A stretch of 64,000 nucleotides of DNA from Phoronis australis (Eukaryota > Animalia > Phoronida): NCBI GenBank assembly GCA_002633005.1, contig NMRA01000397.1:97217-161216 (forward strand). Direction: 5' to 3'. Made by a program: the position numbers and the translations under genes. Shown here piece by piece: positions 3,294-63,565 of this stretch (position 1 is its first letter; every line of letters starts with the position of its first letter). The notes under the pieces were generated by a model. That model was not told the DNA's origin, made no database searches, and worked only from the letters and a program-made list of their open reading frames with translations.

Positions 3294-4803
3294 TAGTCAA
3301 GTGACCTAATTATCAGATGCTTTGGCACATTTTGCATGATATTTAATTGGTAGTACTATGGGTTTTTTGTAAATTCTGTATTGAAATATTAAAAAAGGGC
3401 AATCGCCGCACATGTAAAAAAGTTCATGTTCATTCAACATTTCGTCTATTCATGAGACATCATCAGTATAAGATATACAATAAGACAGCAAGTGTTGAAT
3501 TCCAGTCAACTCACATCCATATAGTGAAATGAGAGTAGCAAGAGATATAGGGAAAAGTAAGTAGGTCATCACCATAGTTGTAGGGTCACTGAGCTCGGCA
3601 TGTTATTGAGAGAATCACTAGCATGCTGGTCCTGAATGGCCAATGACTCCTTGTTGTACAGTAATTCCTTTATAGGTTCTTTACAAATACTACTTACTGA
3701 ATTGGCTTGGTGGTTATTGCTAACACAACTAAACTTTACTTTGAGTAAATTGAGTTATTTAGAGAAATTGGCATTCTACCGTTATTCTGCCGCTAAAGTT
3801 GTAGAGCGATCTTATCCACGGGCTTTCATTGCAATGAAATATAGCTGCTCTTCTTCGTCTTTGCACAGGATTCTTATAGCGAATACCCCGGTCCGCAATG
3901 TCTGTCAGAATTCGACATTCTGAAGTTGATACAACATTACACCTCAGCACGACCAGAATTCTTGTAAAATCTTCACAATATATGAGTCCACCATCGTGAA
4001 TTCAGATTAGGTAGAATAAACAAAACAAGTCACCTGCGTTTTCCATTTACTTGGACGGAAGTGTTANCGTAAGTAATGAGATGAGGTCAATCTCAATTTG
4101 GCCGGTGACACTGAGAAATGCTCCAAAAATAATCAATAATATTTGTCTAAGTGAGAAATGCGCTGGCAATGGGTCTTTGTATAAATTCAATTGACTGTAT
4201 ATGACAAGTTGTTCTTGCCGAATTGAATAGGTGATTGAAGAGATGATGTACAAGCCACGTTACACCATCAATAGACTTCCGCCTCAGTCTGCCACTTGAG
4301 TGAGATCGCGGATTAGGCTTCTGACAACTGACCACTTGGCCTTTATTCAATTTCAATGGGCTATGGTCAGTTGTTGTCAAGTGTAATTTGAACCTATGAA
4401 GACTTTGTTAACGATACTGATACCTTTTTTACAAACTGGTTGGTAATTTTTTAAACTAGTCGCGGGAAACTTAAACAGGTTGCGAGTGCGTCCGGTCCAA
4501 TCAGGTTGTGGTGACGCGTTATAAGCGGCCGTGGAGAACACTGGGTACCTAGTTGCCAAATTTTATGAAAATTCGTTGATGTAAATGGATACCCGGAGTT
4601 ATATGCATATATTGTTTGTAAAACAGTGTAGTGAAATAACCCAGCATGCCGATTCTATATATTTTAACATAGATTGGCATCAAAAAGTAAAACTGTGTAA
4701 GCAATAAAAAATTCAAATAATAACATTGACTGGACGTTAAATGCAAAACTGATTAACTTCTTGGATAAGATATTTAGTGAGAACTCATTGCTTGTATTTA
4801 CAG

Positions 4804-4916
4804 GAATTAAATCTTGACTTGATTCAGTTTCCAAAGCCTGTTCACATCCATGAAGTGCGCATCATACCCCTGGGTGCTAGGGTACATGCTGATGTACCGG
4901 GTGGAGTGCGCCTTGG
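4804..4916 (+). CDS. VIRMA: VIRMA exon (VIR_N: ELNLDLIQFPKPVHIHEVRIIPLGARVHADVPGGVRLG)
   Basis: ttacag|GAA ... GG|gtatgt; phase 0 to 2. Confidence 0.92.
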
Positions 4917-19900: not shown

Positions 19901-22900
19901 GTGATTCTAGAGATAACCGTGACTATCGCGATTCGAGAAGTCGTGAGCGTGGACGTGATCGGGACAAGGATAGGAACAGGCGTGAGTATGACAAGGACAG
20001 AGACTATGAGCGGTCACGTAAAAGGTCACCTAGGAGGTCAAAGTCACCCACTTTCAAGAGGTCAAGGTCGCCAAGAACTAGGTCAAGGTCACCAGCACCA
20101 CCTCACAAACCTTCAAGCGGAGAGACTGGCGAAGCAGCAGCAGGTTTGTTTATAGAATTGATCTTGAACACATTTTGGATTACAAGTTCCTCACAGAATA
20201 AACTATCGAGTAGTTACATTCTCTGTAAAAATACCTACTTGTTGTCATAGTAAAACCCTGTCAATTTGTATGTGTTTGCTCTCCGGTTGCATGCGTTTTC
20301 TCTTTCAGCCACATGTAACTTTCCTTTCGTTTTTTGTTTGCCTCTTACATTGCAAGTTTTATTTGTATCAAACTATCAGGCGTGCAAGTATTGTGTAAAG
20401 ATTATTTCATTGCCAAAGCTTTGTTGCTAATTTCATCTCAACCCAATTGAGAAAAGCTAAAGTGAGTGTAAAGCAGATACGGCTATTACAGAGGCACAAT
20501 GTCAGTGGCTATTTTTATTTATTTATTATCGATTTGAGTCTATTTTTATCATGTGAATGAACAAACTAGTTTTGTTGCACTTGTGCCGTGTGTTCTCATC
20601 AGATGCTGTTTGCCCTCTGGAGTCACCACCTGAGGAGTTTCTGGAGCCCATCTCACCTGATGGAGACGACGAGTTTGGAGATCCTGATCAGGTCAGTGGT
20701 CACATCTGTGGGGCTTGGTGAAAAAGGGTAAACAGCCATGTTCAAGGCGAATTTAGTCCTATTGTGAATGTTGGTACTTTTAGTCACTTTAAAAACATTG
20801 AATCTGCAACGTAGGATATACCAGGGCTGCGTTGCATGGGCCTAAGACATTATCTTGCACTTACGGTGAAAAATCTCGGCTTATGGAACGGAACAGCGAC
20901 TGACATATATCCCATAATTCACGAAGTTTATCCTATAATTTAACACATCAACCTATCACTTCAGTGGTGGCCATTTTGCTAAGTTAGGCTAGTAAGGTCT
21001 TGAGCAAACTCGCGAAAAACACCTTTCATTCATTTCATTTTGCGTGATCTTGCTTTTCTTGCTCAAGAAAGTTGATCTATGGAACGCACTCCTATAGACA
21101 ATGCTATGTAAAACTGGTCCTTATCTCATTATTAAATTATCTCATGTTTAAGACTAGTATAGTTGGAAGTTGTGTAGTTTAATTTCCAGGTCCTGATCAA
21201 GGCGGTTCATATCAGTTACAATTTCAATACGCTGCACCAGTATCTCAATATTTATTCGAAGAAAAAAAGCTGATTTTGAGAATGTTTGATGAAAAATAGA
21301 AATAATCGGGACAGGTTAAGATAAGAATTGATTTCTCAGTGATTAGATATACCTATATTTCATTACGGTAAATGGGTTAAAATAAAAAATCAAAATTACT
21401 CTATGGGTTACTCCACAATTGATCCGTTGTTAATTGTGAGGTACCCAAATGCTCTGGTACATCCTTCACTTCACACTATTTGAAGAACATTGTCTTTAAG
21501 ATATCTTAATTACTTCGGGTTTGGATTGCAACTGTGTGTAGGTTTCAACAGTTTTTCAACTGATGTTTGCTGGTGCTACTTTGCATCAAATTGTATCTCT
21601 TTTGTCCCCAGGAGGGTATTGATGTAGGTTATGAGGACATCGACTCGGACGAGGAGTTTCTGTCTGGTGATGAGATGTTGCCTGAGGTGAGTAACTTGTA
21701 TTTTGATACACGTGCACCACAAATGAATGGCTGGAATGTGTATTGCATGATGGAAGTATGCTGGTTACTAGTGAGACCAGCCATGGACATATCTGAATAG
21801 AATTTAAAAGTTTGCTGCTGAAAATCAATCCGTGAATGATAAGAGACTCTGTTGTTTCAATGTCACATTTTTATGCGCCCATACGCATACGCATACATTT
21901 ATCAAGTGTCCCAAAAAAGTGAATCACTTTTTGACAAGTAATTTCTCAGCATCGGATAAGCCATTTTTCAAATTTTGTACAGATGAAACCTTAGGATATT
22001 ATCAACAAATGTGCTAAATATCAAAGAGATCTGTGTCCAATTGTGGGGGTACTGTCAAATTAAAAAGATCAGGTCAAAAAATAATATATCAAAGTTAAGC
22101 TCGCTTATTTCAGTCTATGCTCAATGTGGCCTGCGTCTTCCCCTACAACTAAACGGAGCCGTTTCTTCTAAGCAGAAACGATTTTCCGTATGTCTCCCAT
22201 CAAGATTTCCTTCCATGACATGATTATCATGTCTTTTAACTCCTGCTCAGTCAGTTTACTTCTCGTTCACCGGTAAACTTTGTCCTTCAGAGAGTCGCAT
22301 GTGGCACAGTCCATTTGATTGCAGTCTGGACTGAGCGGAGGCCACTCATCCTTTTTGATGAATTTTAGTGTGGCCTCCTCCATATGAGCCTGGGTTATCT
22401 TGCTTGTGTGTGATGGAGCCCCATCTTGCTGAAACACCTAAGTGTTTCCAAGATAAATTCACCTGTAATACAGGAGAGGATTTTCATCCAATAACTGCTT
22501 GTAGCTTTGACTGTTAACTTTGGCTCTTATCAGTGTCAATAAAATGAATCTTTGTTTTTCCTTCCAAAGATACTCCAGCGAAAACCATAACTTTTTTGGA
22601 AAATCTGGAAGTCTCATGATAGAGTCAAGAGGGCTGAATTTCTCTTTTTTGTTTCCCACAAGCATGATCGTGAATTTAATAGTAAAATCTTTTTTCATCA
22701 TTGAAAATGATTTCTTTCAAATCAGTGGCTGTGTAGCAGTCATTCAAGTATTGGCATTGAGTTCTTCTTTTCCTTCTAACATTTTGATCTCTCTGTGATA
22801 CCCACATTCTTTTGAAGGGTTTTGACTCCATTTTTTCTCCATTCTTTGCTTAGAAGACATGCTCACTTGCGATTCGCATACGATTACTCTCGGAGATTTG

Positions 22901-40900: not shown

Positions 40901-43900
40901 TTATGTGGGTGGGGTGTCCTGCTTTAAAACTAGTGTTTTGTATTATGGGAATTAATATCATTAACTCCATTTTAACATAAAACACTGATTAATCTCCCTT
41001 TGATTAACAAGACTGCATTGAATTTAATTTTCCAAAACAAGGAAAATTGAAAATACACAAAATTCATGAAGTTCATTTGCTAAGCTGACCTGAGCAAGTT
41101 TTTGATGGTTGATAACTGTGGTGTGATTGTCTACCCTCCTGTGTGTTAATTTTGTCATCAATGAATTTGTTTTCTTTCTGTGTAAGAAGACAACGCGGAC
41201 TCAAAAACCAAGAAGTCTGCTTATATGGGTTACAGTCAACAGCTGCTATTGAATGTGCTCCGTCACACAGACAATGTGTCATTCCTGGAGAAATATGCCC
41301 AGGATTTGTTGGCATTGGCTGAAAAAGGTTTGAGGTTTTATAAGAGATTAAAGTGCTGTTTACTAAACGAAGCAAGCTAAGTAAGAATAGTTATTTTTTT
41401 TATTCCGTTTCGTTCATATGTTCGGGATAAAACTCTGCATTCAACTGAACATTGATGAAGTAGCTGACCTAGAGACATGAGTGTAGGGTTTTATTCTGAA
41501 CATATGAACGAAACGGAATAAAGACTGTCAATAACGAAAAGTGTCGTGTGTTTAATCATTTCTGCATATCAGAAAACTTGCCCCTGAAGTACAACTGGTA
41601 GGTGTATATATCTTTTTGCTGTTTTGTAGTTCTTACCGTACTGGTAGGGGTATGTATCTATTTGTTATGTCTTTATTCTTACTGGTAGGTGTACCTATAT
41701 ATTAGCTAATGTATTTTTGTTCTTACCAGTAAGTGTATTTATCTATTTGCTATGTCTTTGTTCTTACCACTAGATGTGTGTATCTTGTCTGTTTTAGACC
41801 TGCCGGAGATAGTGTCCTGGCTGGAGCCCTTCAAGAAGCTGCGTGGACCCCTGGATCATGAGTACGTGCCTGAGCTAGTCTCCTTCCTCAAACAATACAG
41901 TGATGACATCATTGATGTGCCCAAGGGCTTGGTGACGGTAATGAGAGCCCTAAGGCATCTAGCTCTGGACCCCAATGTCAAGATACGTGATGGTAGGTGG
42001 AGGTACCATGCTGGATAAGGCGGACTCACTTGCAACAATCATCGGTTAAAAGAGAACTGATGGCATGTCTTTGAAGTTGATCTGAAAGAACAACTGTTTG
42101 TATTGTTAAAATTTTGATGAAACATAAGTTGGATAAAACTGGTAGTACTGAGTGGTGGTATGGTCAGATTTGGTGGAGACTGCAGAAGTACACACAGCAT
42201 CTGAAAATAATTAGCGAGAAATTTCGGTTCTGAAATTCTGGTTATTTTTGACTGCAGGAGAGTCATGTTTTGAAAATTTGCTGCAAAGCATTTTTGAGGC
42301 CTTTTTGCATCGAAGACAGAAAAGTTTAACGGGTTGCTTATCACAGTTTGTTCAGTCATGTTATTCCGCAACTATGATTACAAGTATGTCAAGCTGATGC
42401 ACTAATTACAGATTAGAGGTAGAATAATGATTGAAATTATGACTAAATTTATGAAACTGTAAAAAGAATGTCAATCTAACTAATTTTAATTGAATTGTTC
42501 AAAGCGTACCCTTCAATTCTTTCATTTCCAGCCCCTCGAGAGTTAAAGCATCAGTATGTCTTAGTGGAGCTTTATCACCTGGACTGTTTACCTGCATTCC
42601 TCAATATATTACAGGTGAGCTAAATACCTTGCTGCTTTACAGCCTTGTTATTTGCCAATAAATTATTTAATACTCATAATCAGTGCATTTATCAAAACCT
42701 CCTGTCGTTTCAGAGGCTTGCTATTTGTGAATATGTAACCCAGAAATTGTGCATTGATGTTGATTATAAGTCATCCACTACTTTATATTTGGAAAGTTAT
42801 AAAATAACCTATAATTGACTTAATTGATAGTTACTGGCAACATTTCGTCAACCACTACTGACTTTATCTGTTGTGACACTTCTATTGGACATTGTCAAGA
42901 ATGAATTAAATGGCATGAAATCTTTGGTTACATTTGTTAATGGAGATGAGATGTGGTCTAAGATGTAGCATGTCACACACCTAGGACCGAGAGTTACTGA
43001 ACATTTCTTGCCATTCGACTCTCTCCATTAAATGTCATGCAGGCTTCATAAAGCCAGCAGTGGTGGATCAAATGTTGTTGATTATTCTCAAGTAAGTCCA
43101 GTATAGGTTCATAACAATTTCCACCAAATTCTAGAAGTAGTGCATTTACTATTATCTATATTAAAATATATACATATGGCCATAGGCCCAAAGTATAACA
43201 TGTTCAAGACAGTACATTGTCAGGTGCGTTACAGACTGGATTGTAAATTGTAACGTTTAAGAGCATTTTGGACAAATTATAGAAGCGGAATGACAAAAAT
43301 GATTGCTTATTAAGTACTTAACCCGAAGGTCTTGGTACGCACTGCAAACTAACACAACATGGTATTCTTCCTCCACACGTCCGAAATTACATAACATACG
43401 CAACCTAGTTCCATAAGAATATTTGCGTGGCAACCTCTTTCCACTTACCGTACTAGTAAGTGTGATTTGAGCATCGCAATGGAGTTAGAGACTGGATAAA
43501 AACATGTGGAATACTAACTATTTCTAAATAATTTGCTAAACAATACATTGTTTTAAACCTCACATAGTTAGACAGTTTTGCATTACATTCGATATAAGGG
43601 ATTATCAGCTTTGCAAATAACATTTGCTGATGTGCTGGGAAAAAAATGTACGCTTGTTTCACCACACCTTGATTAATCCATACATCTGAAAATCCATATG
43701 CAGACAAAAGTGTACTTACAAAAGTTGCCCAACTGTAAGAAGGTCTTCCGATCAGGTCTGACTGAAAAAGCATATAATATGCTGCCTTTACGCCACGATT
43801 ACGAGCCATCCCCAGTATTTTGAACGAATATTTTATGCAGGAAACATAATCTTTAGTATACAATGTGAATTGACCATATATTGCCATAACTGCTGAGTTA

Positions 43901-46900
43901 GAATAGCAATTGCCTATTTGTAAAATGCGTTCACAAAACTTGATATGTACATTTTCGAATTGTTCATATTCCTTAAAGCCCCATATCTCAGTGCCATAAC
44001 ACAAAGGGGTATGATCCGTTTTTTCAAATAGGTGAAAGGCTATAAATAGAGGTAGACCACAACATCTTCGCTTTCAATTATAAATTGCACAGGCAGCTTT
44101 ATTTGCTTGATGGCTTTGGTCCACAAAACTTTTGAAATATTAAACAGTCCAATGTGCACTTATCCAAATCACTCTACGGTTATTTCCCTCTATTGTTTTT
44201 TTCCAACCCTGTTGAGTTTCTTTCCTAGAATTGGCCAACATTACATTAAAACTTCTTAATTTATATTTTATATACGATGCAAAATGTTTGATTTCTGGAC
44301 TGAGATAGCAATGATTACGGTAATCAAATATTTGCCTTCAAAATTTGGGTCTTCATTAACCATTCAAGTGTGTGTTACAGAATGTTGCATACTAAAAGTA
44401 CGAGACACAAGTAATCGGACAAAATACTGTTTGTCCGTCATAATGACTAATTGTATTTTATAGCAAAATGACTGGTAATAACTATCAGGGCGGCGAAATT
44501 CTAATGAGAAGACTGGCTTAGCTAAGTTTATTAATAACTTTGGTTTTAATTCCTTTCATTCTTGCTCAGAGGCAAGACTACTCTGACAATGAATTTCGTT
44601 TCCACCCAGTCACGACGGGCCAATTCATGGCTGCCAACCATTACGGATTTATCCATATTCTACGTACATTCAGGGTCTAAAAAATTACTGCATACTGATT
44701 TTTATGTGTTATGGATTTTAAGCATTTATTTGTCTTCAAAAAAGTCTGTTGAAAATAAAAAATATCTTTAAAATTGTGATTGTTTCGAAGTGTGAGATCA
44801 TCAAAGATCGAGGCAGGCATTACCAGATATGTGACGGAAATTATCGAGAATGCGTGAGCCGACGCATCCTGAGTACCAGTGTAGGATGCAATTAGCATAC
44901 GAAATTTCCCTTTTGTGATTGGTCAGTTGCATTTTTTTGTGTGGGACTGGCGAATGAAAAATAAGCTTACTTGATTTTGCATTATGGGATATTGCATGCT
45001 GTGAAATTCTTTTTAAGATGTCGAGAGTGAAATTTCGGAGACAAATATGCCTGTCCAATGAATTAGATTGTACTTAGAAAACGGGAATGTAATCAACCAC
45101 ATTTATTCAAGCTGTCTTCAACACTGAGAACCCTGATGCCTTCAATACCATAATGGATCAGGAATTATGAGATATCAGGATTTGTGGGGCCTTGGTAGTG
45201 CGGGAAGGAATCGACTATGTCAACAACAAAAGCCAAAAAACATCGATGTGGCAAGCTGAGTTACGACTTAATGTTGCTTTTTTGTTAAACACAATTTGAA
45301 ATTGAAAATTGTTGTTTTGGGGTGTATTGATCCATCTTGTGATTGAAACTTAGACTTTCTGAAAATGGAAATCACTCAAGTTTGCACTTGCTTTCACTTG
45401 CAAAATACAGATTTTTAACATGAAAGTTACAGATTATGTCCAAAATGGGTTGGCAGCCTGGGTCATTTTGTCTGCATGCTTTTGCCTTGTACTTTATCTG
45501 AGTTTGCCATGAACATACACCTGAAGTTGAATCCTATAAGTTATTTCTTTGCAGAAACTTAGTGAACTTCAGCTGTATAACTGGCAGAGAGGCCTTCCTC
45601 ACATGCCCAATCAGATGGTGACGTTCATGAGCATTATTCAACCAGCTCTCAGTATCGTACGTGCCACGCTGCAGATGTTAATACTTGCTCGCAGCGCTGA
45701 GGTAAGTACACACTTAATCTTACTATTTCTTGTTTCACAGTTTGTTTGGATGATAACCTCATTGTAATATCTGTGTGTCAAATTGTTTGTTTGATAATTT
45801 GGTATAAAAAAGGAGCCTCGTTAGGCAGTGAGTCATCATGGTAAAACATTGTAATGTGTGTAAAGTGTACCTTGTACAGAATCTGAACAACTGTATCTCT
45901 CACTTCACTATTATGGATGTTACCTGAGCTGTATGTTGGCACTTGCTGTCCTGTGTAAATAATTATCCGGTAATGTCTAATGAATAGACGAAACGTTGAT
46001 TGAACATGAACTTTTTTATATGTGCGGTGATCGTCTGGTTTTTAATCTATTTACAACTGGTTCCTTATTAACTTTGGCTATCCATTCTTCTTGCCAATGA
46101 GTGTTCATTGTATGTATGAGTATAATGACAACTAGTCATAAAGGACCTGGCCACGAGTGTCATGGATTTCACGAGGATAGCCACAGTTGATTTACAAAAC
46201 TCTTCAATTGACTTGTATTGTATGTCCTGTTTTCAACCTTGTTATTGCCTGGCCACAGTTCAAGGACACCAGCAGCCTTCACACGTTATTCACCATACAT
46301 ACTCTATTGTGCACCGTACCACCCAACATCAGTGAGGACGACATGCAACGTATACAGGCAGACATCTTGGATTGTCTGCTAGCCTTCACCCAGCCTGTTG
46401 TGTTAACAGCAGACGGTAAAGATTCCGATGAAGGTTTGTTTTTGGATCATGAATGTTATCTTACATATCGCAATCTATGTTATTTAGTAATTCAGACTTC
46501 TCGACCAGAATCATCATTCTGAAAACAGTGCTCGACACCTAGCTTGATGCCATCTCGTGTTAAGCGATGTCGAAAATCCCAGGTAGTCAAACAAAATCTG
46601 AGGTCACCAAAAATAACACATTAAAACCGTGGACTAAAAAGAAAGGTCTTGTGGTACTCCATTCTCAAAAACTTATGTATACGTTTTCAATTTCTCCCTG
46701 TAAAAAATATCTACCGTTCAATCTCTAACTCGATTGCTCTTGCCAACGAAGATAGATTGCACACTATGGATTATACTGAATGTGCATGTTTCACTGATCT
46801 TGCCCGATTTTTGCCAAACAGTTATGACTTCCGTCTGTTTTACTCCCTGTTGTATTTTAAGTGCGTGTGTGATGTGTGATGTGCGCTGACTGCTGTGGTG

Positions 46901-55900: not shown

Positions 55901-58900
55901 ATCCTTTCTGAACCATATTCGTCGCAAAGTGTGCAGTATAGATGCTCGACTGAAAATGTGCAAGTTTTTCTAACTAAAGTCATTTGTAAACATTTATATC
56001 TCTCCAGTAGCTTGGGATACAGTTATATGAACAATAAGATAAACATTTTCATTGGACTGTGTCACGTTTTTCAGTTGGTCAACTCCATTCCTGGCAAGTC
56101 TCAGTTAGCGATGATATGTGGCGCTCTTCTGGAGCACATTGGCCACCCAGACCACATGTACCCGTCCATCTTGATAGCCCTGAGGACGCTCAATATGTTA
56201 CTCTACCATGATCACGGCTTTTACGCTCTCAAGAGGTGAGTTTTGTGATGAAAATTAGGATGAAGGCGGATGACCGAAATTTATTGTTTCATTTGCTACT
56301 TCTGTTTTTTTATGAAATTGAATGTCTCATGTAACGTTAAACTGCACCTCATAATACAAGTAGAGAAGTTGAATTGTAAAGTTCAAGTGAAAATATCTGA
56401 ATAATGTTGGAATCATGATAAACAAATGAATCTTGTAAATAATGTAAGTTGCATGACATGCCTAAAATCAAAGTAAATCACAAATCATGTTTCTCAAGTT
56501 GGGAAACAATCGATGTCTTAAGCCCATAAACAGCAACAATGTCTTGAACTTGAACAAATTCAAACAGTCATGTTTACTGATTAACTGTTCACTTTATGGT
56601 CAGTTATCCGATTTCAAACACTTCATGCTATGGAACTAAGAAAAACGAGAATTAAAATTTCCATTTTATCGATCCAAAAAGCTTGCACAAATTATTTTTT
56701 CCAACGCAAATATGTGTATGAATTATTTTTCCCTCGGTCGCCTACTGTACGAACTATTGGAGACAAACGCCATGTTTCAAGGGTCCTGCATGAACTAATA
56801 GAGTGTACGAACTATTAGAGAAAACACCGTACTTGATTTTGTAATAGCTTACTCTTAATGTCTTTTGCAACAAAAATTTCTGCATTTCTAAGCTTTCCCT
56901 TTTAAACCAAGCTGTATGTTGGTGCATACTTATGTGAATATTTCCTCTACAATTATTCTCGATGTACTCTCAAAACCTGTGTCTGCCTTGGCCAGTCTAT
57001 AGCCAGGACAGGCTCCCACTTTAACGGTGATCTCCAGCTGGCCAGCCACAATTGCACTGCACATGCCCATCACTGGAATTAATGAAGAATCGTATTTTTG
57101 GGAGGTCATTGGAAAGTGCTGTTCTTTGAAAAAGTATAAAAAATTGATGCTAGTATTAGTATCCTGTCTGTTAACATACACAGCAATGTCACAGTTTTCA
57201 TAGATAGCTATATTTACTCAAATCTATTGTACCAGTTACTATGATGTAAGGGTTGCAATGTCTGATTCATTTTCATGCTGAATATCAACATCATAGTCAC
57301 TTGAAAACAGCATTGCTTCTTGGACTTATAAATGTATCATGTTACTTTACGGGTTGTAGACTTACGAGTGATTGGCTGGTAGACGTCAGTATTTCCGATG
57401 TTCACCACCGCATCTATTGGTTGAGGGTTGTAGCACTCATGACCATTAAACTCAATCCACCAACGGGCACAGCTGAATTGTTCTACATTCACATTGGTCG
57501 AATACATCACTTGTATATGGCTGGTGAAGTTGCGTTTATTGAAGGTCACCTTCTGTTGTCAGACAACACACAACTTATTTGTTAACTGGTTGGATAATGT
57601 ATAATTTTCAAAAGTCAAAATGTTCGCAATTCCACAGCTTTTACAATTTGCTTAAACTGTAACTTGAGAAAGGTTACTACATTCCCTAACATGATATAAA
57701 ATTTGCCATAAATGTTTTTTTTTCCGTCGTCATACTGTCTCTCAAAATCAATATTTCCTGTCCTACTGAAAATTTTCATTTGAAGAAAAATGATGGAACC
57801 AAGTTCGAAATTTTTTAACTGTGACCTCTGTGAGTTTGATGTTGCTCATTATGCTGTTAGGTAACTATGAAGTAATATGGGTGTGTATAAGCTGAATTAT
57901 GCCAACAATTTGCCAGCACAACCAATTTTGGCGTCGTGTTGCTATTTTGGATGGTAAGAAACCACTATTAGTGTAGTTGCTTGTGAAAACCGATATACCA
58001 GGCACAAATGTGTTAATTCATACGATAAGTCTATAAGTCTTACCTTTATGATACCTTTGCTGAATATGTCTCGTTTCTTCCACACATACTGTTTGCTAGT
58101 ACTCCTTGGGTGCTTCTCTAGATAAGATTTTAAAGGTGTTGAACTCATTCCGTTTAGAACAATAGCTATCATATTACACTGAAGTGAATATGGTAATTGG
58201 CTACTTTTGTGGATTTTTGAAAACAATTCAGTGTTCATGTATTGCATAAAATTATATCTTTATTTTTCGTTGCTACTCATAAGTGCATTATTTATGCACC
58301 AAATATGCGAGTTGTGTGCAACGACTTAACAATTGATTCCAATTATGTGGCAAATCTTCGACAGCTATGTTTGACGCATTAAGCAGTTTTTAACATCGCT
58401 CTTTCTTCAGTGAGTGAGTGGTATGACTTGCACGAAACTGCAGATATTTTATGGTCTGTGGCTGAGGTAACCATGTCTCAGATTGCTTCCATAGAAAAGC
58501 AGAGATATTGACCAACAAATAGGAAGATTTGTGGTGATGTATTGATAAGGGAATGTAATGGCTGATTTTTTCTATTGTTTGTTTGCAAATAATAAGTCGA
58601 AGACATGATTCCCTACGTGGGTATTGTAAGGATATATTGTGGGGACGTGAAGTCATTTGCAATTCAACTTTTTTGGATTCATGTTCAAACTAATCAATGA
58701 TAATTTTCCAAAAATGGTAACCACATTGTTATAAACAACTGTGGGATGTTTTAGGCTTGGATTGAGATTTCTTAGACATTGAATATTCAAAAAATGTATA
58801 CTTTTAAGGGAGGGTTGAAAACGGACTGTTAAGACATGTGATGAGATGTGAAAGGACTTTGCGATGGTTGATGATTTCTTTAATTAAGCTGTCATATTTC

Positions 58901-61900
58901 TGAATTTGATTTCAAAATAGGTGCAAAATTGCCCCATATCATGTTACTTAGAAACCTTAAGGGTATATTCAGAATGCTCACCTAAACTTTCAATCCTTTG
59001 TCTCTGAGTAGTTAGCTGCTTGGTCATAACTTCCCGTTCCAAGTTACCATTGGTCAGCTTCTCAAAACACTGCTTCACGTCTTCTATACTGTGATTTAGA
59101 CGTTGTTTCATCAGTTGCTGTGTAAGTGCTAAATTTTGCTGTTTTACCTCCATCGTGGTCTGCTTTATCTCTACAGTAACCACTTTCGATTGTGCAAGAG
59201 CTATGGAAGAGTTTTGATTAGCAATGTCATTCTTGTTTAACATACTCAGTTCTGAAATCGATTTCAAGTCTGCTGCCAGTTTGTCAGTCTCTGACTTCAC
59301 TGTTCTTAAGTCTTTCCTAAGTTCACTTACAGTGTCACATTTTAGTTCAGTACACACCACTTTACCTCCAACTTGCTGCTTGAGCCAAGATAGTTTTTTG
59401 GAATGCTTTCTCTGTTCCGTTTGAACTTGTGTAAGCAGTGTAGTTATCACGTCAACTCGCGATTGAGAAAGCGTTTGTCTGGCTCTCAGCTCGGCATTTT
59501 CTGTTGTCAACTTGTTGATGAGACTGGTCTGGTGTTGGAGAAGGGAGTCTTGTCTTTGTATGCTGGCTTCCAGCACATGTTGTTTGGTTGTCAAAGACCG
59601 AATGTATTCTTCTGTTTTGGAGGTCAAGAGATCAAGTGTTGTTTGCATGAGGTTGACGTCTGCTTCTAAATCAGCCACTGTTCCATAAATACGGCAGAAG
59701 AGAAAGAGAACTACTATACCATTCACTAAAGCTGCTGACATTTTGAATGCCATCTATGTCAATAAGTTTTCCTTGTTCAAATCTTGACTATCATCGATAT
59801 CACTTATTGCTGTGGCCAAATTGAACTTTACTCATGACTTATCTGATATGTGTAGATTTCAGGTCATCACATTTTGTGTATTGTGGCCTTCCTCATCTTA
59901 TCGTTTCATATTGTTATTGGCTGATAAAAATTTCCCAGTGATAATAGCATCTGAAAAGTTAACATAACTACAAAAAAATTAAGATGTTGAATAAGTTCAC
60001 ATCAAGTGAAAACAGAACTTATGTGCGTGACGGTCATTGATTATTTTACTAGATAGTTCTCTTGATTCTAGTTACTGTTTATTTAATTCGTAGACTCACA
60101 TCCGGTCCTCTAGTCTAATTCAAGCCATTGGACAAACTACCAAGTGTTTTTTGCTCTCTGTTCAATGGTCTACTACACATTCTGCTATGAAAGTTTTGCC
60201 CAAGTGAAGTTAATGTATCCTCTCTATTGCTTTCCACAATTGTTATCAATCCATTCACAGTGCCCTCAAGAACAACAAGCAAGCCCTGTTCAACCTGTTT
60301 CACCGCATCAACAACACGTTCAGCCATGACAGTTCCGACTGTGTGTCCACACTTTCTACAGCACTGGAGCTGCTACGTTCACTTTCTGCGCTTGACCTGC
60401 CACCTGTCGACGAGGAGGGCCTAGCGGAAACGATAAGCTTGAGGTACGATACTGGGCAATAGTCAGTTATACGGGTCACGGATTTTGAGAAGCAGTCTGG
60501 TGCCTGTTATTCTGTTGAGAAAATTGGTTCTCAAAATGCGGGATCCCTATAACAACTATTACCTGATGCTGTGTAAATATTTGAAGGGAATAGTCTTGGT
60601 GCATCTGCCTCAGTGTCGTACTATTCATACTTGAACCTGTTCTGCTGGACTGAATTTACCCAATTCTGATATCCTCAGGATGTCTTGTCTCCTTAGGAGG
60701 ATTATGTTGACTACTGCTAGTGGCAGGAAATCGTGTCACGTAAGATCATGTTTGTCTTGTTATGCTGCCAACACTCTCAATCCATGTTGACGACAATTTG
60801 AATCTGGCGCCTCCTAGCTTTTTGAGAGAAGGTTTTATGGCTTTGATGTAGATAGCCTCCTGTACCTGTCTATCAAGCCATTTTGTCTCTGCACATTCAG
60901 AGAGACCAGACATCTCAGAGGATTTAAGAATTAGAAAAATACCGTCCAGCATACCAGATTCAAGAATGCATTTTCTGGATGGCTGAAGAACCACATTTTA
61001 TGGGCCAGTCATAGGTGACCTTATTATGTGCTTGGTAAAAGTGCACACTCCGCACATACTTGACTAAATTTGACCAAGCTAGGTTAGGCTTAATGGAGGG
61101 TTACCTTGTTAAATATTTTTCTCCAAGCTTGAATTTCTTTGCTTCGTTACTAACCATTGCTCGGTCTGCTTGAAAAAAATAAGAAAGGTAAATCAAGCTT
61201 GCCAAAAAACTGTTGAATCAAGTTGTTGGGTCAAGCTTGGAAAACCTTGCTTCTAGCTAAGCATTACTGTCCAAGCTTGAATAAGAATACTGATCAATAA
61301 CATAATTCAAGATTATTAACTTAGCAAATTCTGTTGCCAAGCAAAACTTTTCATAACATCTTATGACCTGTTTTCGCGTGACAATGTAGCTCGTGCAACC
61401 CCTTCAAATGCGCTAAAATAAAGACATCTGACAGTTACTAATAAAGTTATGGTTTGTGTGAAACCTTCAATTAGGTAGCCCCAATACTACAGTATTGGCC
61501 AAACTTGTATAATTTGAATAACATCATGTACTTGTTGCCAGTAAAGACTAGTCAAGCTGCTTGACAAATTTTGCTTACATTTGGCTAACTGCCCTGTTCC
61601 CAGAAATCGATGGCTAAAGAGTGAATGTTTTTTAAAGGCGAAGGCAACCTTTTTCCATGTCATTTTGAGCTAAAATAAGGTTGGTTGGTTATCCTAGACA
61701 TATTTTCCACTTAATTACAGCTTTTCGTAATTTTATGAATTACTCGTCCGCTACTCCGGAAGTGACGTTTTAGGAGGCAAGCATTTCGCGCCACCGTCTG
61801 CAGGATGTTTTTTTAAATTAGAAAGTGTATTTGTAGGAAGGTGACAACGAATGATGGCAACATTCAGATGTATTGGACTACCGCTGGCAATTTTATATTT

Positions 61901-63146
61901 TACCTTTATTTTTCCTTCATATCTTTGGAGTTTCTTGTTGCATTTTTATGAAATTTGGGAAATAGGTTTCTGTTAAAATATGTGATGATACCTTCCCGTT
62001 TTCAGGTGGACTTGACATAATGAAAGCCTCCAAGTGGCCATTTTTATTTATTTAGTTTTTGGTGTCCATCCCTGTATCGGCGTACTCACTCTAAGAATCG
62101 TTAAGAAAATTGGTATACATGTTCTTACTGGGAAAAGCATGACTGACAGTGATTTTTGGACAACTGTTGCACCTGTAATAACAGTTCTGCTTTTTTCGCA
62201 ACCACAACTGATTCTCCTAAGCCCCTGCAGGATCTTTGGCAAATTTGGCTAGTGTATTTCTGTGAACGTGACAATGGTTGACGACTTTTGGATGTATCTG
62301 ACTACAGCTTTGTCCCTTTAGTGCCAGTTTTATTTTTTTACGATCTTTGCTTGTGTGTTCCTATTCAGGAGAGAATTGCTGACTTGCTGTTTACCCCTTA
62401 AAAGCTATTTTAAGTTCACTAGCATTGCTCCGTTTAGCGGAAATTTTTGATGTAATAATCATCCCTTGTATTTGTGATATATGTGATGCATATGATTGAC
62501 TCCAGGTTGCTCTTGTGTAATGTGTAATGAACACTGACACTTTCGTTTTGTTGTCTGCAGGACAATGACTCTGACTGGCAGTGAAGTGCGTGACACGTTG
62601 AACTTGGAGTCAGTTGACGAGGCTCAGCACCCACTGTTTGACCTGGAGAGATTACTTGTGGTGTGTAGAGTGTTTGGGTTGTGCGTAATAAGCACTTCAC
62701 AATTACACAATAAATTTAAGCTCACTTGGATTTTGAACCACTAGTCTTTGTGGATGTTATACCAAGGGACTGTACGGTTGTGACAATTGTTGGTAAAGCA
62801 TGCATCAGCAATTGTCTACAGTAATCCCTTAAATTTATGCAATAATTTATTTTCATGAGCTATTGGGAACACCAAAAGAATTTCATTGTCAGTTATGTGT
62901 CATGAGACTTATATTTTAGAAATTCTGAAATTTATTTTGCCTACTTTTTGAAAGCAGTTTTGCCTAATCGGCTATTTAATTATTGTTTTATTTGCTGGTT
63001 AGTTTCAACCTAACAAACTGTTGATCATAGATTTAACATTTTCTTGCAGGACTATTCCAAAGAAGAAGAGTCCCTGGAGAGTCTACTAGAGAACATTACT
63101 GGGCTGGTGCAATTAATAAGGGACACTTCGATCAAGGAACCTAAAG
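4804..63146 (+). CDS. VIRMA: Protein virilizer homolog (VIRMA/KIAA1429), m6A methyltransferase complex subunit; 29 internal coding exons, 5' and 3' ends not in the traced region
   Basis: Exons joined by hand at GT-AG sites with consistent phases (5071 nt total). Peptides match recalled human VIRMA: DLIQFPKPVHIHEVRIIPLG / FVNNLSRPSASTF / PTDGLIVKGYYCTLTLAVFG (VIR_N domain), FLEPISPD, GYEDIDSDEE, NPYPALF, GLALLSELLPLPLP, IQHVLRRLCWQIADL, VQSLCDPEV, HDHGFYALK. Confidence 0.95.
4917..5190 (+). repeat. GT/GGT/TGT-rich low-complexity tract
   Basis: Degenerate (GGT)n/(TGT)n directly after the VIRMA donor at 4917. Confidence 0.7.
5560..6150 (+). mobile_element. Penelope-like retroelement fragment (RT C-terminus + GIY-YIG endonuclease)
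   Basis: LMKSMIDRAYKICST and FEFCCAGCGAYYVAETRQRL (VYxFxCxxCxxxYIGET-type motif); disrupted. Confidence 0.65.
6454..6540 (+). CDS. VIRMA: VIRMA exon (ATNPSNFKVQVFVNNLSRPSASTFQLMS)
   Basis: ttacag|A ... CA|gtatgt; phase 2 to 2. Confidence 0.92.
6858..8129 (+). mobile_element. Helentron/HINE (DINE-1-like) non-autonomous element with internal ~150-bp tandem array
   Basis: Starts tttatgcatccac...gtggacgcat (sub-TIR/palindrome) plus CGTC-like tract; ~150-bp monomers in a ~440-bp higher-order unit; ends gtgggcacatttcaacgctccgcgttt..ctcgtt; near-collinear with 27847-29308. Confidence 0.7.
8866..10244. mobile_element. Non-autonomous DNA element (Kolobok-like ends), with related pieces at ~3770-3960 (inverted) and ~27260-27835
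   Basis: Left end aaggttactgg vs right end caggaacctt+ttaa; 9130-9720 aligns by eye with 27260-27830. Confidence 0.5.
10551..10729 (+). CDS. VIRMA: VIRMA exon (LDFSMNNIQ...PTDGLIVKGYYCTLTLAVFG...)
   Basis: ttctag|A ... G|gttggt; phase 2 to 1. Confidence 0.9.
12400..13516 (-). mobile_element. Spliced THAP-domain transposase relic (ISL2EU/Harbinger-like), pseudogenised
   Basis: Exon 13516-13419 MGTDAFCSAINCMNSSSKTPDVSFCRFPKDSE|gtaagg; acceptor at 12834 gives RCKRW...LCSHHFEES...AVP..FDVPSPP (THAP C2CH and AVP motifs) with stop and frameshifts; downstream VERTISQ resembles the Harbinger DDE C-terminal HVERxI motif. Confidence 0.65.
14160..14934 (-). mobile_element. Possible Academ-like DNA transposon remnant
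   Basis: LGLAPTVHHDTRNK..NAHGYCVPHD peptide; repeated cgccatttttgaaaat..aaatggc sub-terminal motifs; terminus reads TAGTCGGG on the minus strand. Confidence 0.4.
15733..18271 (-). mobile_element. 5'-truncated non-LTR retrotransposon with RT + RNase H + CCHC (I/Ingi/Nimb group), 11-bp TSD
   Basis: QSGFRKNRSTEDQ, LTKAFDKVW, HADDL, YLGV (RT); VYTDDS, LQWIPSHCGISGNE (RNase H); RLRTGH, CPCG..QTPEHLLQSC; (GAA)n 3' tail; CAGCACCAGTT at 15722-15732 and 18272-18282; several frameshifts. Confidence 0.92.
19151..20143 (+). CDS. VIRMA: VIRMA large exon: Pro/Gln/His-rich tract followed by RD/RS-dipeptide-rich tract
   Basis: cttcag|GT ... G|gtttgt; 993 nt open, phase 1 to 1, fits both neighbours; lies within ORF 19111..20250. 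Confidence 0.88.
20603..20691 (+). CDS. VIRMA: VIRMA exon (DAVCPLESPPEEFLEPISPDGDDEFGDPDQ)
   Basis: catcag|AT ... CAG|gtcagt; EPISPD motif as in human VIRMA. Confidence 0.88.
21612..21686 (+). CDS. VIRMA: VIRMA exon (EGIDVGYEDIDSDEEFLSGDEMLPE)
   Basis: ccccag|GAG ... GAG|gtgagt; resembles human GYEQISSDE. Confidence 0.88.
21900..23459 (-). mobile_element. Tc1/mariner DD37D (maT) transposon, decayed, ~50-bp TIRs
   Basis: TIR atcaagtgtcccaaaaaagtgaatcactttttgacaagtaatttctcagc with inverted copy at 23411-23459; transposase pieces SGRPKT, FNDEK, FQQDGAPSHT...WPPLSPDCNQMD with 37 residues between the 2nd and 3rd D. Confidence 0.85.
23460..24100 (+). repeat. HINE-type tandem repeat array, related family (other degenerate copies at ~13600-14040, 15280-15730/18272-18600, 30040-30310, 31650-31890, 47770-48420, 61860-62340)
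   Basis: Recurring atgaaatttggcaca...ggatttgactact...cctagtgg.cattt monomers. Confidence 0.65.
24754..24846 (+). CDS. VIRMA: VIRMA exon (EGDYEYDSGDYAWVSGLTVFDSFQCEVLPLQ)
   Basis: tcaaag|GAA ... CAG|gtaaga; phase 0 to 0. Confidence 0.85.
25151..25762 (+). CDS. VIRMA: VIRMA exon (HFHDPSLTPYQ...WVEALE...IRHLKMG...SLVSNK)
   Basis: tcgcag|CAT ... AAG|gtttct; overlaps ORF 25256..25777 in frame. Confidence 0.92.
25792..26136. mobile_element. TTAA-flanked MITE (Kolobok-type)
   Basis: TTAA on both sides; imperfect ~50-bp TIRs (tttgatgtta..tt.agcaaaa.tgcaga.ccc). Confidence 0.7.
26590..26678 (+). CDS. VIRMA: VIRMA exon (MFRTTMAVTALLRKVHTYQVADKLKRAVD)
   Basis: ttccag|ATG ... GT|gtaagt; phase 0 to 2. 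Confidence 0.85.
27847..29308 (+). mobile_element. Helentron/HINE-like element with ~450-bp higher-order tandem array
   Basis: ttatgcgcccac...gtggacgcat start, cgtccgtccg tract, units at ~28061/28511/28961, end gtgggcgcatttcaacgctccgcgttgctcttgtt (sub-TIR + hairpin). Confidence 0.72.
29737..29902 (+). CDS. VIRMA: VIRMA exon (ISERPPQE...CLDELRKVTAEVHYVL)
   Basis: ttacag|T ... TTG|gtgagt; phase 2 to 0. Confidence 0.88.
31894..32399. mobile_element. hAT-like MITE
   Basis: TIR cagggcttggaa / ttccaagccctg; TGATAT repeated on both flanks; inserted into a tandem-repeat unit. Confidence 0.7.
33604..33701 (+). CDS. VIRMA: VIRMA exon (CQPGRTLPNKVLFNSQGPKRNPYPALFHILHS)
   Basis: ttgcag|TGC ... TG|gtaagc; resembles human QPPVKSFP...DPYPVLFRYLHS. 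Confidence 0.9.
34013..34199 (+). CDS. VIRMA: VIRMA exon (NFLEGIFVLLS...GLLFLSSRPDTVNGLVRLLLQAALP)
   Basis: ttatag|C ... CCG|gtcagt; phase 2 to 0. Confidence 0.9.
34740..35220 (+). mobile_element. Gypsy/Ty3 LTR retrotransposon integrase fragment
   Basis: DRLVIPLSLRTEILDHLGIAKCCARGRESVW*PGLSKEIEQTVSFCKIC (integrase Zn-binding region) and RPWERVGMDMF...LVVVAYYSKW. Confidence 0.85.
36869..36983 (+). CDS. VIRMA: VIRMA exon (DESREDGEESVSQQLGLYLVYNLQALQYIDQLKGLSDK)
   Basis: tttcag|GAT ... G|gtaggg; phase 0 to 1. Confidence 0.87.
37390..39260. mobile_element. Older TTAA-flanked element hosting the 37471-38936 insertion
   Basis: ttaa-agcctatcctcaacgg ... ccattgaaattgggct-ttaa (11/16 TIR match). 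Confidence 0.45.
37471..38936 (-). mobile_element. TA-flanked TIR element (Tc1/mariner-pogo-type ends) carrying a decayed HIRAN-like ORF, copy 1
   Basis: TA|ccgtattcaccctaataagcgccca ... tggacgcttattagggcgaatatgg|TA; minus-strand frame DNPFDKYAASVLKGQTIIGHVPHKISK..FLKHGG; inverted relative to 51934-53078. Confidence 0.8.
39466..39624 (+). CDS. VIRMA: VIRMA exon (...HALHGLRTMLYTVQGQEAVAHVFSLDDNFALLLPFLHPK)
   Basis: ttgcag|AG ... G|gtaagt; resembles human GRSAVGHVFSLEKN. Confidence 0.9.
41187..41327 (+). CDS. VIRMA: VIRMA exon (DNADSKTKKSAYMGYSQQLLLNVLRHTDNVSFLEKYAQDLLALAEK)
   Basis: tgtaag|AA ... G|gtttga; a tandem AAGAAG acceptor allows an alternative start at 41190. Confidence 0.85.
41399..41522 (+). 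repeat. 45-bp-arm inverted repeat (hairpin), 34-nt loop
   Basis: 41399-41443 pairs with 41478-41522: 40 Watson-Crick + 5 G-U pairs on the + strand. Confidence 0.85.
41590..41797 (+). repeat. Degenerate ~40-45-bp minisatellite, ~5 copies
   Basis: Recurring ttcttac..gtaggtgtat.tatctatttg.tatgt units ending at the 41797 acceptor. Confidence 0.7.
41798..41992 (+). CDS. VIRMA: VIRMA exon (LPEIVSWLEPFKK...GLVTVMRALRHLALDPNVKIRD)
   Basis: ttttag|AC ... G|gtaggt; phase 1 to 1. Confidence 0.9.
42532..42614 (+). CDS. VIRMA: VIRMA exon (PRELKHQYVLVELYHLDCLPAFLNILQ)
   Basis: ttccag|CC ... CAG|gtgagc; phase 1 to 0. Confidence 0.88.
43440..44300 (-). mobile_element. CR1/L2-type LINE RT C-terminal fragment
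   Basis: CYGTEIWG...ENVHIKFCERIL...WATFVSTLLSAYGFSDVWINQ...LRCSNH. Confidence 0.75.
45555..45701 (+). CDS. VIRMA: VIRMA exon (KLSELQLYNWQRG...LILARSAE)
   Basis: ttgcag|AAA ... GAG|gtaagt. Confidence 0.9.
46259..46433 (+). CDS. VIRMA: VIRMA exon (FKDTSSLHTL...IQADILDCLLAFTQP...DSDE)
   Basis: ccacag|TTC ... G|gtttgt. Confidence 0.9.
46526..47131 (+). mobile_element. hAT-like MITE; second copy at ~48685-49373
   Basis: cagtgctcga ... tcgagcactg ends; internal gtcgccaaa repeats shared with 48685-49373; no clear TSD. Confidence 0.6.
49596..49732 (+). CDS. VIRMA: VIRMA exon (LSKSLWTSMMRELFKY...GLALLSELLPLPLPVHTRQ)
   Basis: tttcag|CT ... CAG|gtaaat; conserved LLSELLPLPLP motif. Confidence 0.93.
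50035..50143 (+). CDS. VIRMA: VIRMA exon (ELTGNELSQAVTSRKLWSVHLHPLTSQIQAVISTLA)
   Basis: atgcag|GAA ... G|gtgtgt; RKLWSxHL motif. Confidence 0.9.
50449..50539 (+). CDS. VIRMA: VIRMA exon (SGCLQIQHVLRRLCWQIADLGVSPATMVV)
   Basis: cttcag|AT ... AG|gtaagc. Confidence 0.92.
50600..53309 (-). mobile_element. THAP-domain DNA transposon relic (Kolobok-like), interrupted by the 51934-53078 insertion
   Basis: Removing the insertion gives MVCCIVPACANYEAARKAGILIF*FPREPEILRKWLTAVKNE...HFRVCGQHFINSDF (THAP); right end ...gtcct+ttaa; left boundary approximate. Confidence 0.7.
51934..53078 (+). mobile_element. TA-flanked TIR element carrying a HIRAN-like ORF, copy 2
   Basis: Perfect 25-bp TIR ccgtattcgccctaataactgccca with TA TSD; SSIRGFHVYKEIWIPVE...NPIDKY...LRHGGSLKCIVT at ~52660-52943. 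Confidence 0.85.
53330..53850 (+). mobile_element. L1/Tx1-like LINE 3' fragment
   Basis: Decayed ETIxHLFFQCPVVRNFW-like zinc-finger region, NLVVLAKRHVY, short caaata repeat tail. Confidence 0.5.
53882..54097 (+). CDS. VIRMA: VIRMA exon (CLLDVLLESL...SGQTARILNLLAYL...LLSS)
   Basis: acctag|G ... AG|gtgagt; phase 2 to 2. Confidence 0.9.
54464..54569 (+). CDS. VIRMA: VIRMA exon (SKSEEAYSTLLDHMLTMLNTVSDRPVHLQAQDCVV)
   Basis: tttcag|C ... GTG|gtcagt. Confidence 0.88.
55230..55304 (+). CDS. VIRMA: VIRMA exon (SIVQSLCDPEVTLVTGDNNLSIQEQ)
   Basis: ttacag|TCA ... CAG|gtaaac; resembles human SILQSLCDQDI. Confidence 0.9.
56075..56235 (+). CDS. VIRMA: VIRMA exon (LVNSIPGKSQL...HDHGFYALK)
   Basis: tttcag|TTG ... 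AG|gtgagt. Confidence 0.92.
56930..57072 (-). CDS. CTHRC1-like nested gene exon 4 (terminal coding exon)
   Basis: ttccag|TG ATG GGC ... SRIIVEEIFT TAA. Confidence 0.88.
56930..59753 (-). CDS. Nested antisense gene: predicted secreted coiled-coil protein with a CTHRC1-like C-terminal domain, 391 aa, 4 exons (59753-58982, 58117-58044, 57552-57366, 57072-56930)
   Basis: ATG plus hydrophobic signal peptide (LVNGIVVLFLFC), about 230 aa heptad-rich region. Then KQYVW...GII / KVTFNKRNFTSHIQVMYS...CARWWIEFNGHECYNPQPIDAVV / MGMCSAIVAGQLEITVKVGACPGYRLAKADTGFESTSRIIVEEI*, aligning with the recalled CTHRC1 C-terminus ([30 protein letters not shown]...VGTC...ASTGWNSVSRIIIEE). All introns GT-AG with phases 1,0,1; 1176 nt including stop. 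Confidence 0.88.
57366..57552 (-). CDS. CTHRC1-like nested gene exon 3
   Basis: caacag|AAG ... C|gtaagt; CARWWIEFNGHEC motif. Confidence 0.88.
58044..58117 (-). CDS. CTHRC1-like nested gene exon 2 (EKHPRSTSKQYVWKKRDIFSKGIIK)
   Basis: tatctag|AG ... AAG|gtaaga; phase 1 to 0; corresponds to CTHRC1 NYKQCSW segment. Confidence 0.8.
58982..59753 (-). CDS. CTHRC1-like nested gene exon 1 (signal peptide + coiled coil)
   Basis: ORF 58944..59753; donor TTAG|gtgagc with intron starting at 58981. Confidence 0.87.
60261..60443 (+). CDS. VIRMA: VIRMA exon (ALKNNKQALFNLFHRINNTFSHDS...ETISL)
   Basis: tcacag|T ... AG|gtacga; phase 2 to 2. Confidence 0.88.
60730..61060 (-). mobile_element. Penelope-like GIY-YIG C-terminal fragment
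   Basis: ETKWLDRQVQEAIYIKAIKPSLKKLGGARFKLSSTW resembles the Penelope ERGVKEAIYI...PSLNRDGG..L..W terminus. Confidence 0.7.
62561..62660 (+). CDS. VIRMA: VIRMA exon (TMTLTGSEVRDTLNLESVDEAQHPLFDLERLLV)
   Basis: ctgcag|G ... GTG|gtgtgt. Confidence 0.87.
63050..63146 (+). CDS. VIRMA: VIRMA exon (DYSKEEESLESLLENITGLVQLIRDTSIKEPK); gene probably continues past the window
   Basis: ttgcag|GAC ... G|gtaaca; resembles human EHSKDDDNLDSLLDSVVGL. Confidence 0.88.
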
Positions 63147-63332
63147 GTAACAGAACAGAAGGGAGATATCACAATTTTCATTTATTTAAATCTGAATTAA
63201 ACATGTATCCTTCCTGTAAAGGCTCAATTTTGATTTAGATGACTTTGTGTAATTGTAAATGTTTTCTCAGACTGTTGCTTGATTTCACTAGATGTGATTC
63301 TGGGCTCAGAAAGAACTCGCAGTTCATTATTG

Positions 63333-63565
63333 CTTGAGGCCATATTCAGCCCATAATGTGACCTGCCTGAGGCCATATTCAGCCCATAGTGTGATCTGCC
63401 TGAGGCCATATTCAGCCCATAATGTGACCTGCTTGAGGCCATATTGAGCCCATAATGTGACTTGCCTGAGGCCATATTCAGCCCATAATGTTCCCGGCCT
63501 GAGGCCATATTCAGCCCATAATGTGACCTGCCCGAGGCCATATTCAGCCCATAATGTGACCTGCT
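63333..63565 (+). repeat. 33-bp minisatellite, 7 copies
   Basis: tgaggccatattcagcccataatgtgacctgcc units starting 63335, 63368, 63401, 63434, 63467, 63500, 63533. Confidence 0.95.

Follow-up and report, generated by a model that had tools for sequence, protein, structure and literature searches.

A CTHRC1-domain gene with a predicted coiled-coil stalk, nested antisense in a VIRMA intron of Phoronis australis

Introduction

Leclere et al. 2020 (PMC7058181) define Cthrc1 as collagen plus a C-terminal head (the CTHRC1_C domain, PF25815), and the vertebrate protein is a secreted trimer. The same source names collagen-less head proteins of Lingula and Phoronis in the footnote to its Table S3 and reports others from choanoflagellates, dinoflagellates and bacteria. 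In the oyster, the commonest layout of the C1q-domain-containing (C1qDC) proteins is a coiled coil followed by a C1q head (262 genes, 55%), and the bivalve coiled-coil C1q proteins act as soluble recognition proteins (PMC6835236). Here we describe a gene of the phoronid Phoronis australis that lies in a 64,000-nucleotide stretch of assembly GCA_002633005.1 (contig NMRA01000397.1, positions 97,217 to 161,216 of the forward strand; "the window" is this whole stretch, and positions below are counted within it). A sequence-only reading of the window had proposed a four-exon gene, antisense within an intron of VIRMA, encoding a signal peptide, a heptad-rich coiled coil and a CTHRC1-type head. The analysis supports an intron-nested CTHRC1-domain gene with sample-restricted expression, whose product is probably a secreted three-chain coiled-coil rod carrying TNF/C1q-like heads that would bind an extracellular target.

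Structure and expression of the nested gene

The four minus-strand coding exons (Table 1) splice to 1176 nucleotides (nt), encoding 391 amino acids (aa) and a stop. All three introns are GT-AG, in phases 1, 0 and 1, and a stop codon stands in frame immediately before the ATG. The coordinates proposed from the sequence proved exact, with the frame intact. As had also been proposed, collagen is missing: not one run of two or more Gly-X-Y repeats occurs in the 391 residues.

RNA evidence came from three raw-read runs of one study, sharing a species label (X2, X3 and X4), of each of which about 18-19% was used, and from an older contig set (X1). All three predicted junctions of the nested gene are present in X2 and X3 and absent from X4 (Table 1); each is backed by 8-21 distinct read starts, and the counts are unchanged when reads are mapped at 80% likeness. 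The first mate lies on the plus strand for all of these junction reads and on the minus strand for reads of the host junction. Because first mates map to opposite strands, the two RNAs are on opposite strands, so the expected minus-strand spliced transcript, antisense to VIRMA, exists. The nested gene is thus expressed in two of the three runs and is off in X4, although VIRMA is on there. Its depth is 20-50 in about 1.7 Gb of reads, about 1-3 times that of the VIRMA exons. The X1 contigs, about 97% identical, cover pieces of exons 1 and 4 and contain no junction. Splicing of exon 1 to a different C-terminus, which would have contradicted the proposed model, finds no counterpart among the junctions listed in the reads, where no alternative exon joint appears. 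An alternative donor deeper in intron 3, suggested by the sequence, likewise has no reads listed for it.

The identity of the host gene, and with it the nesting that had been proposed, is well founded. A VIR_N domain at 4753-4920 identifies the host as VIRMA, and the exon at 25109-25774 matches the human protein with an expect value (E) of 1.8e-14. The exon just before the host intron matches human VIRMA residues 1312-1365 (E 1.2e-4); the match of the exon after the intron is in register but weak (E 1.2).

Reads on the strand of the nested gene run beyond its stop codon and over the upstream VIRMA exon, at a depth of 5-7 in X2 and X3 and of 0 in X4, whereas their depth on the downstream VIRMA exon is 0-0.07. 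Since the signal covers the upstream but not the downstream exon, it reflects a long 3' untranslated region (UTR) rather than strand leakage. Between 55990 and 56235 this UTR lies antisense to a VIRMA coding exon, a natural overlap of sense and antisense exons. Repression of VIRMA by the antisense RNA left no sign in the counts: the host junction has 9 and 17 reads where the nested gene is on and 13 where it is off.

Among the coding alleles listed for X2 and X3, at least five codons differ silently and at least four changes alter a residue, and a 3-base insertion allele in the leader preserves the frame. This pattern, among the alleles listed, is only a hint of constraint. Reads from a paralog were also considered at 80% likeness; the differences listed in coding exons were allele-like, and the divergent reads sat on repeats. 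Short dispersed repeats at 56700-56830, 58235-58320 and 60500-60550 attract such divergent reads from other transcripts.

The C-terminal head

Exons 3 and 4 each match PF25815 alone, above the cut-off of 27 bits (Table 1), and a CTHRC1_C profile built without the joined protein gives it 116.9 bits over aa 250-390, close to the span of about 260-391 anticipated by the sequence-only reading. For exon 3, the best three Atlas matches (0.83-0.84, lead level) are all clusters of CTHRC1_C. No match to the C1q domain PF00386 was obtained at E<=1 in any of the four exons, scanned singly. Four head cysteines and the conserved head motifs are retained, while the first two head cysteines are missing. By these profile matches the nested gene belongs to the PF25815 domain family. 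It is not a Cthrc1 in the strict sense, because Cthrc1 is defined as collagen plus head in PMC7058181.

The fold was predicted on a stand-in, the Lingula single-head protein P0029, which is 33% identical to the head of the nested gene; the mean predicted local distance difference test score (pLDDT) of the model was 68. The model is an all-beta sandwich whose best structural matches are TNF/C1q-like, in agreement with the C1q-like assignment in PMC7058181. Closest were the TNF-like lectin PLTL (PDB 9ib6; Z 9.6, root-mean-square deviation (rmsd) 3.0, 127 residues aligned) and the C-terminal domain of chlamydial Pgp3 (PDB 4jdn; Z 9.3, rmsd 2.9, 121 aligned; Foldseek concurs, E 5e-4). Matches to BclA (Z 8.3-8.6) and C1QL1 (Z 7.6) followed. 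The PDB titles credit Pgp3 with a coiled coil and PLTL with binding to blood-group glycans. Both differ from the nested gene in being bacterial, at 9-16% identity, and a common fold does not show function.

Leader and stalk

Residues 7-19 are hydrophobic, giving a core of about 13 residues, and Thr-x-Ala stands at 25-27; judged by hydropathy, the leader is a plausible signal peptide. A Lys precedes the hydrophobic stretch and an Arg follows it. Thr-x-Ala at this position fits the rules for signal peptidase.

Between leader and head, periodicity and modelled helicity both indicate a coiled-coil tail. The main Fourier peak of the stalk is at 3.5 residues, with local power greater than in all of 1000 shuffles, and one heptad register spans aa 44-257, with L, I, V or M filling 61% of the a and 55% of the d positions vs 6-26% of the others. 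Exon 1 encodes no proline. In a single-chain model of exon 1 (mean pLDDT 79), helices at 7-129 and 139-256 flank a low-confidence Gly/Cys hinge; as a coiled coil they are calculated to measure about 15 and 18 nm. The heptad-rich stalk seen in the initial reading is therefore well supported by the single register, the 3.5-residue peak and the helical model. Coiled-coil cores rich in Ile, Val, Thr and Gln lean toward trimers, which speaks for a three-chain stalk, and R-h-x-x-h-E is a trimer motif. One in-register copy, at aa 253-258, ends the stalk across the first splice junction.

Relatives of the nested gene

Three described systems resemble the nested gene, each in a different way. With the CTHRC1 family (PMC7058181; PF25815) it shares the C-terminal domain, a hydrophobic leader and two head intron positions, but it has a 230-aa heptad stalk for collagen, lacks the first cysteine pair and is nested in VIRMA rather than placed beside FZD6. 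The Lingula proteins that combine a PAN domain with three CTHRC1_C domains (e.g. XP_013395411.1), together with the Table S3 proteins, are like it animal, secreted-type and collagen-less, and the named Lingula domains lack the cysteine pair as its head does (either cysteine kept in 0 of 10). These lophophorate proteins differ in that they have as many as three heads in tandem and lack a long heptad stalk, and they do not group with it in a tree. The bivalve sC1q-like type II proteins have the same plan (signal peptide, coiled coil and a C1q/TNF-fold head) and the same functional logic, but their head is PF00386 instead of PF25815, and they make up a large, expanded family for which binding data exist (PMC6835236); the nested gene is a single gene known from sequence and RNA. 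The analogy that had been drawn with bivalves is a published one: in the same source, bivalve C1q-domain proteins usually have a coiled coil where collagen would stand.

The PAN plus three-head layout was found in P0005, P0006, P0030, P0038, P0039 (Lingula) and P0004, all annotated as uncharacterised, with the third head partial in P0039; such proteins could form single-chain trimers. Other layouts encountered were short proteins of leader plus head and, in amphioxus, a gene model fused to a folate receptor.

A long heptad stalk is missing from all 43 other CTHRC1_C proteins that were inspected, a small and length-limited sample. Among the 43 PF25815 proteins examined, 22 are without a run of four Gly-X-Y, many of these being fragments. 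The best 35-residue heptad window scores 0.66 in the nested gene, 0.60 in a frog model, which has an extended N-terminus before a normal collagen CTHRC1, and at most 0.48 in all others. A profile search that covered proteins of 371-2000 aa gave 26 matches among its best 7994 candidates; in one search, 17 of 28 matches had PF25815 and the other 11 were unrelated repeat proteins. Word-index searches found nothing with exon 3 among longer proteins or with exon 1 among proteins of 141-450 aa, both weak negatives, and the unspliced exon-1 frame was not found in the protein collection. In metagenome contigs, 229 pattern matches yielded no confirmed case. Literature searches, which did not cover subscription papers, listed no publication on an animal CTHRC1 protein with a coiled coil.

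Absence of collagen by itself was already on record (PMC7058181, Table S3 footnote); a CTHRC1 head on a long coiled-coil stalk was not found elsewhere in animals in these sequence searches. The layout joins parts that are known, and substitutions of this kind are known too. Three of the original proposals fared less well. A lineage-specific "class" is not seen, as one such gene is known, with no paralog in the window, no ortholog in the sequence searches and no stalk relative in the exon-1 word search (a weak negative). A candidate second copy at 62394-62609 was rejected, having 12.6 bits (E 0.008) vs 9.0 bits (E 0.12) for the best reversed control and lacking the core motifs. A direct exchange of collagen for coiled coil is not borne out either; because lophophorates already have collagen-less CTHRC1-head proteins, the immediate ancestor may have lacked collagen. 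The suggested role in matrix, biomineralisation or immunity is likewise conjectural.

Origin of the gene

In the read-through genomic calls P0023, P0027 and P0028 of other CTHRC1 genes, homology starts after a Gln (CAG), and intron 2 (phase 0) occupies this same column. The 5' intron of the CTHRC1 head is conserved across metazoans (PMC7058181), and intron 2, judged by these read-through break positions, corresponds to it. Intron 3 (phase 1) interrupts the codon at which P0028 breaks, as do four of five fused vertebrate models (P0050-P0052 and P0054); P0053 does not match this pattern. Introns 2 and 3 therefore appear to sit at the breaks of vertebrate-type CTHRC1 genes. Because the two introns match animal CTHRC1 models, the head would derive from an animal Cthrc1-type gene, and horizontal transfer from bacteria was rejected. 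The stalk, which is a single exon, was probably joined to an ordinary animal Cthrc1 head at the phase-1 intron.

Which animal lineage of heads is involved is suggested by the cysteines. The first pair is absent in 10 of 10 named Lingula domains, while each cysteine is kept in 20 of 22 other named domains. In the alignment of Fig. 3B of PMC7058181, read by eye, both are absent in 7 of 7 Lingula rows, 3 of 3 Phoronis rows and the single bryozoan row, and nearly all remaining rows retain at least one. The missing pair hints at a lophophorate-type head. Counting against this, a 50-domain tree does not place the head beside the tandem domains of Lingula; partial domains and five rows that were isoforms or near-duplicates had been removed from this tree, and the collagen-bearing Lingula and Phoronis proteins stand outside it. 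Its identity to the 49 other domains is 19-36%, the best (36%) being a coral domain.

The position within VIRMA is probably incidental. VIRMA maps to human 8q22.1. The human CTHRC1 locus is at 8q22.3 (PMC10193374), and a common ancestral linkage group could account for a Cthrc1 derivative landing in VIRMA.

The proposed product and its alternatives

A secreted homotrimer is the simplest reading, because heads of this kind generally occur as trimers and the CTHRC1 of vertebrates is secreted in trimeric form. The signal peptide would be removed near residue 27 and the protein secreted; the two helices of the stalk, around the Gly/Cys hinge, would zip three chains together, with Cys134, Cys139 and Cys229 possibly locking the trimer. 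Trimerisation would give the heads avidity and reach, and their target would likely be extracellular, for example a glycan, a matrix protein or the surface of a microbe.

Several points weigh against this reading. The R-h-x-x-h-E motif adds little because it also arises in 4147 of 20000 shuffles (21%), which is not significant. The fold comes from a stand-in 33% identical to the head and not from the nested protein, and the top Z values, 8-9.6, only slightly exceed the range of 7-8, which the tool describes as common. The head forms a long branch (1.49) with no supported neighbour in the 50-domain tree. According to PMC10672478, the role of the coiled coil in invertebrate C1qDC proteins lacks experimental proof. 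Finally, the three runs all come from one study.

The strongest competitor, though an unlikely one, is a CTHRC1-like modulator of signalling, in which the three joined heads would act on Wnt/Frizzled or TGF-beta components while tissue is remodelled and the coil would serve only to trimerise. These are the only functions shown for the domain family, in vertebrates (PMC7058181); the nested gene keeps the conserved motifs of the head along with four of its cysteines and two intron positions, and its expression varies between runs. Yet the head is a divergent one by its low identity to the 49 compared domains, its long branch and its missing cysteine pair, the stalk of about 33 nm far exceeds the 12 Gly-X-Y repeats of vertebrate CTHRC1, and literature searches found no functional data from invertebrates. 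A structural role, with the stalk bundling into fibres or cross-linked parts of a secreted material (mucus, tube, cuticle or shell matrix) and the head nucleating assembly, is improbable. The stalk does make up about 60% of the protein and holds three cysteines, the whole protein has three N-glycosylation sequons, and BclA fibres are capped by TNF/C1q-like heads; the modest depth is unlike that of bulk structural proteins, however, and repetitive or low-complexity material motifs are lacking. Least probable of all is a type II membrane protein like the TNF ligands, its uncleaved N-terminal anchor and stalk raising the head off the cell, for despite the TNF-like fold of the stand-in and the flanking Lys and Arg, the hydrophobic core is short and followed by a Thr-x-Ala that suits signal peptidase, and family members are secreted (PMC7058181).

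More tentatively, the gene might be the first known example of a family of coiled-coil CTHRC1-head proteins in invertebrates that has so far gone undescribed, paralleling bivalve type II C1q proteins, with heads acting as TNF-like lectins. If this were true, the CTHRC1 head would be a free recognition module trimerised by collagen, tandem fusion or coiled coil, and there would be a simple handle on the ligand of the head domain. Were such a gene to come from a phylum scored as having lost Cthrc1 (molluscs, nemerteans), that loss would need revision as well. The function of this head is known solely from vertebrates, and it has no solved structure among PDB sequences, which gave no match to the stand-in query P0029. 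The existence of a natural, expressed coiled-coil version points to an exchangeable stalk, with the function residing in the head. Because no prolyl hydroxylation is needed, the coiled-coil protein should express easily for structural work and ligand screens. The locus also illustrates how such genes escape surveys, being antisense in a housekeeping gene, with the head divided among three small exons and without the collagen that would draw attention to it.

Features of the window

Table 1. Nested CTHRC1-domain gene and its host intron, with junction reads given for runs X2/X3/X4
Feature	Position	Strand	Content and evidence
Exon 1, coding part	58982..59753	-	Predicted signal peptide (aa 1-27) and entire heptad stalk (aa ~28-257) with Gly/Cys hinge (aa 129-139); nested-strand reads in X2 and X3
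Intron 1, 864 nt, GT-AG, phase 1	58118..58981	-	Boundary of stalk and head at residue 258; junction 58117/58982, reads 41/11/0
Exon 2	58044..58117	-	Linker and initial strands of CTHRC1_C head (aa 258-282); profile alignment and reads
Intron 2, 491 nt, phase 0	57553..58043	-	Junction 57552/58044, reads 19/19/0; where homology of read-through calls of other CTHRC1 genes starts
Exon 3	57366..57552	-	Core of CTHRC1_C head (aa 283-345); PF25815, 42.1 bits
Intron 3, 293 nt, phase 1	57073..57365	-	Junction 57072/57366, reads 35/28/0; in codon where vertebrate-type CTHRC1 models break
Exon 4, coding part	56930..57072	-	End of CTHRC1_C head (aa 345-391) and stop; PF25815, 39.6 bits
3' UTR, lower end approximate	55990..56929	-	Longer form antisense over VIRMA exon 56072-56235; dispersed repeat at ~56700-56830
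VIRMA host intron, 4025 nt, GT-AG	56236..60260	+	Junction reads 9/17/13

Elsewhere in the VIRMA span, a long open frame on the plus strand (19108-20250), Pro/Gln-rich and then Arg/Asp/Ser-rich, has no Pfam match and is probably a low-complexity VIRMA exon. On the minus strand, a VIRMA intron holds a broken non-long-terminal-repeat (non-LTR) retroelement in several frames at 15800-17900 (RVT_1 at 17006-17599, 56.1 bits), and a 206-aa frame at 43453-44073 resembles, by eye, a degenerate retroelement tail. At 63331-63564, a tandem repeat of 33 bp (7.1 copies, 91% matches) yields a spurious 114-aa repeat frame.

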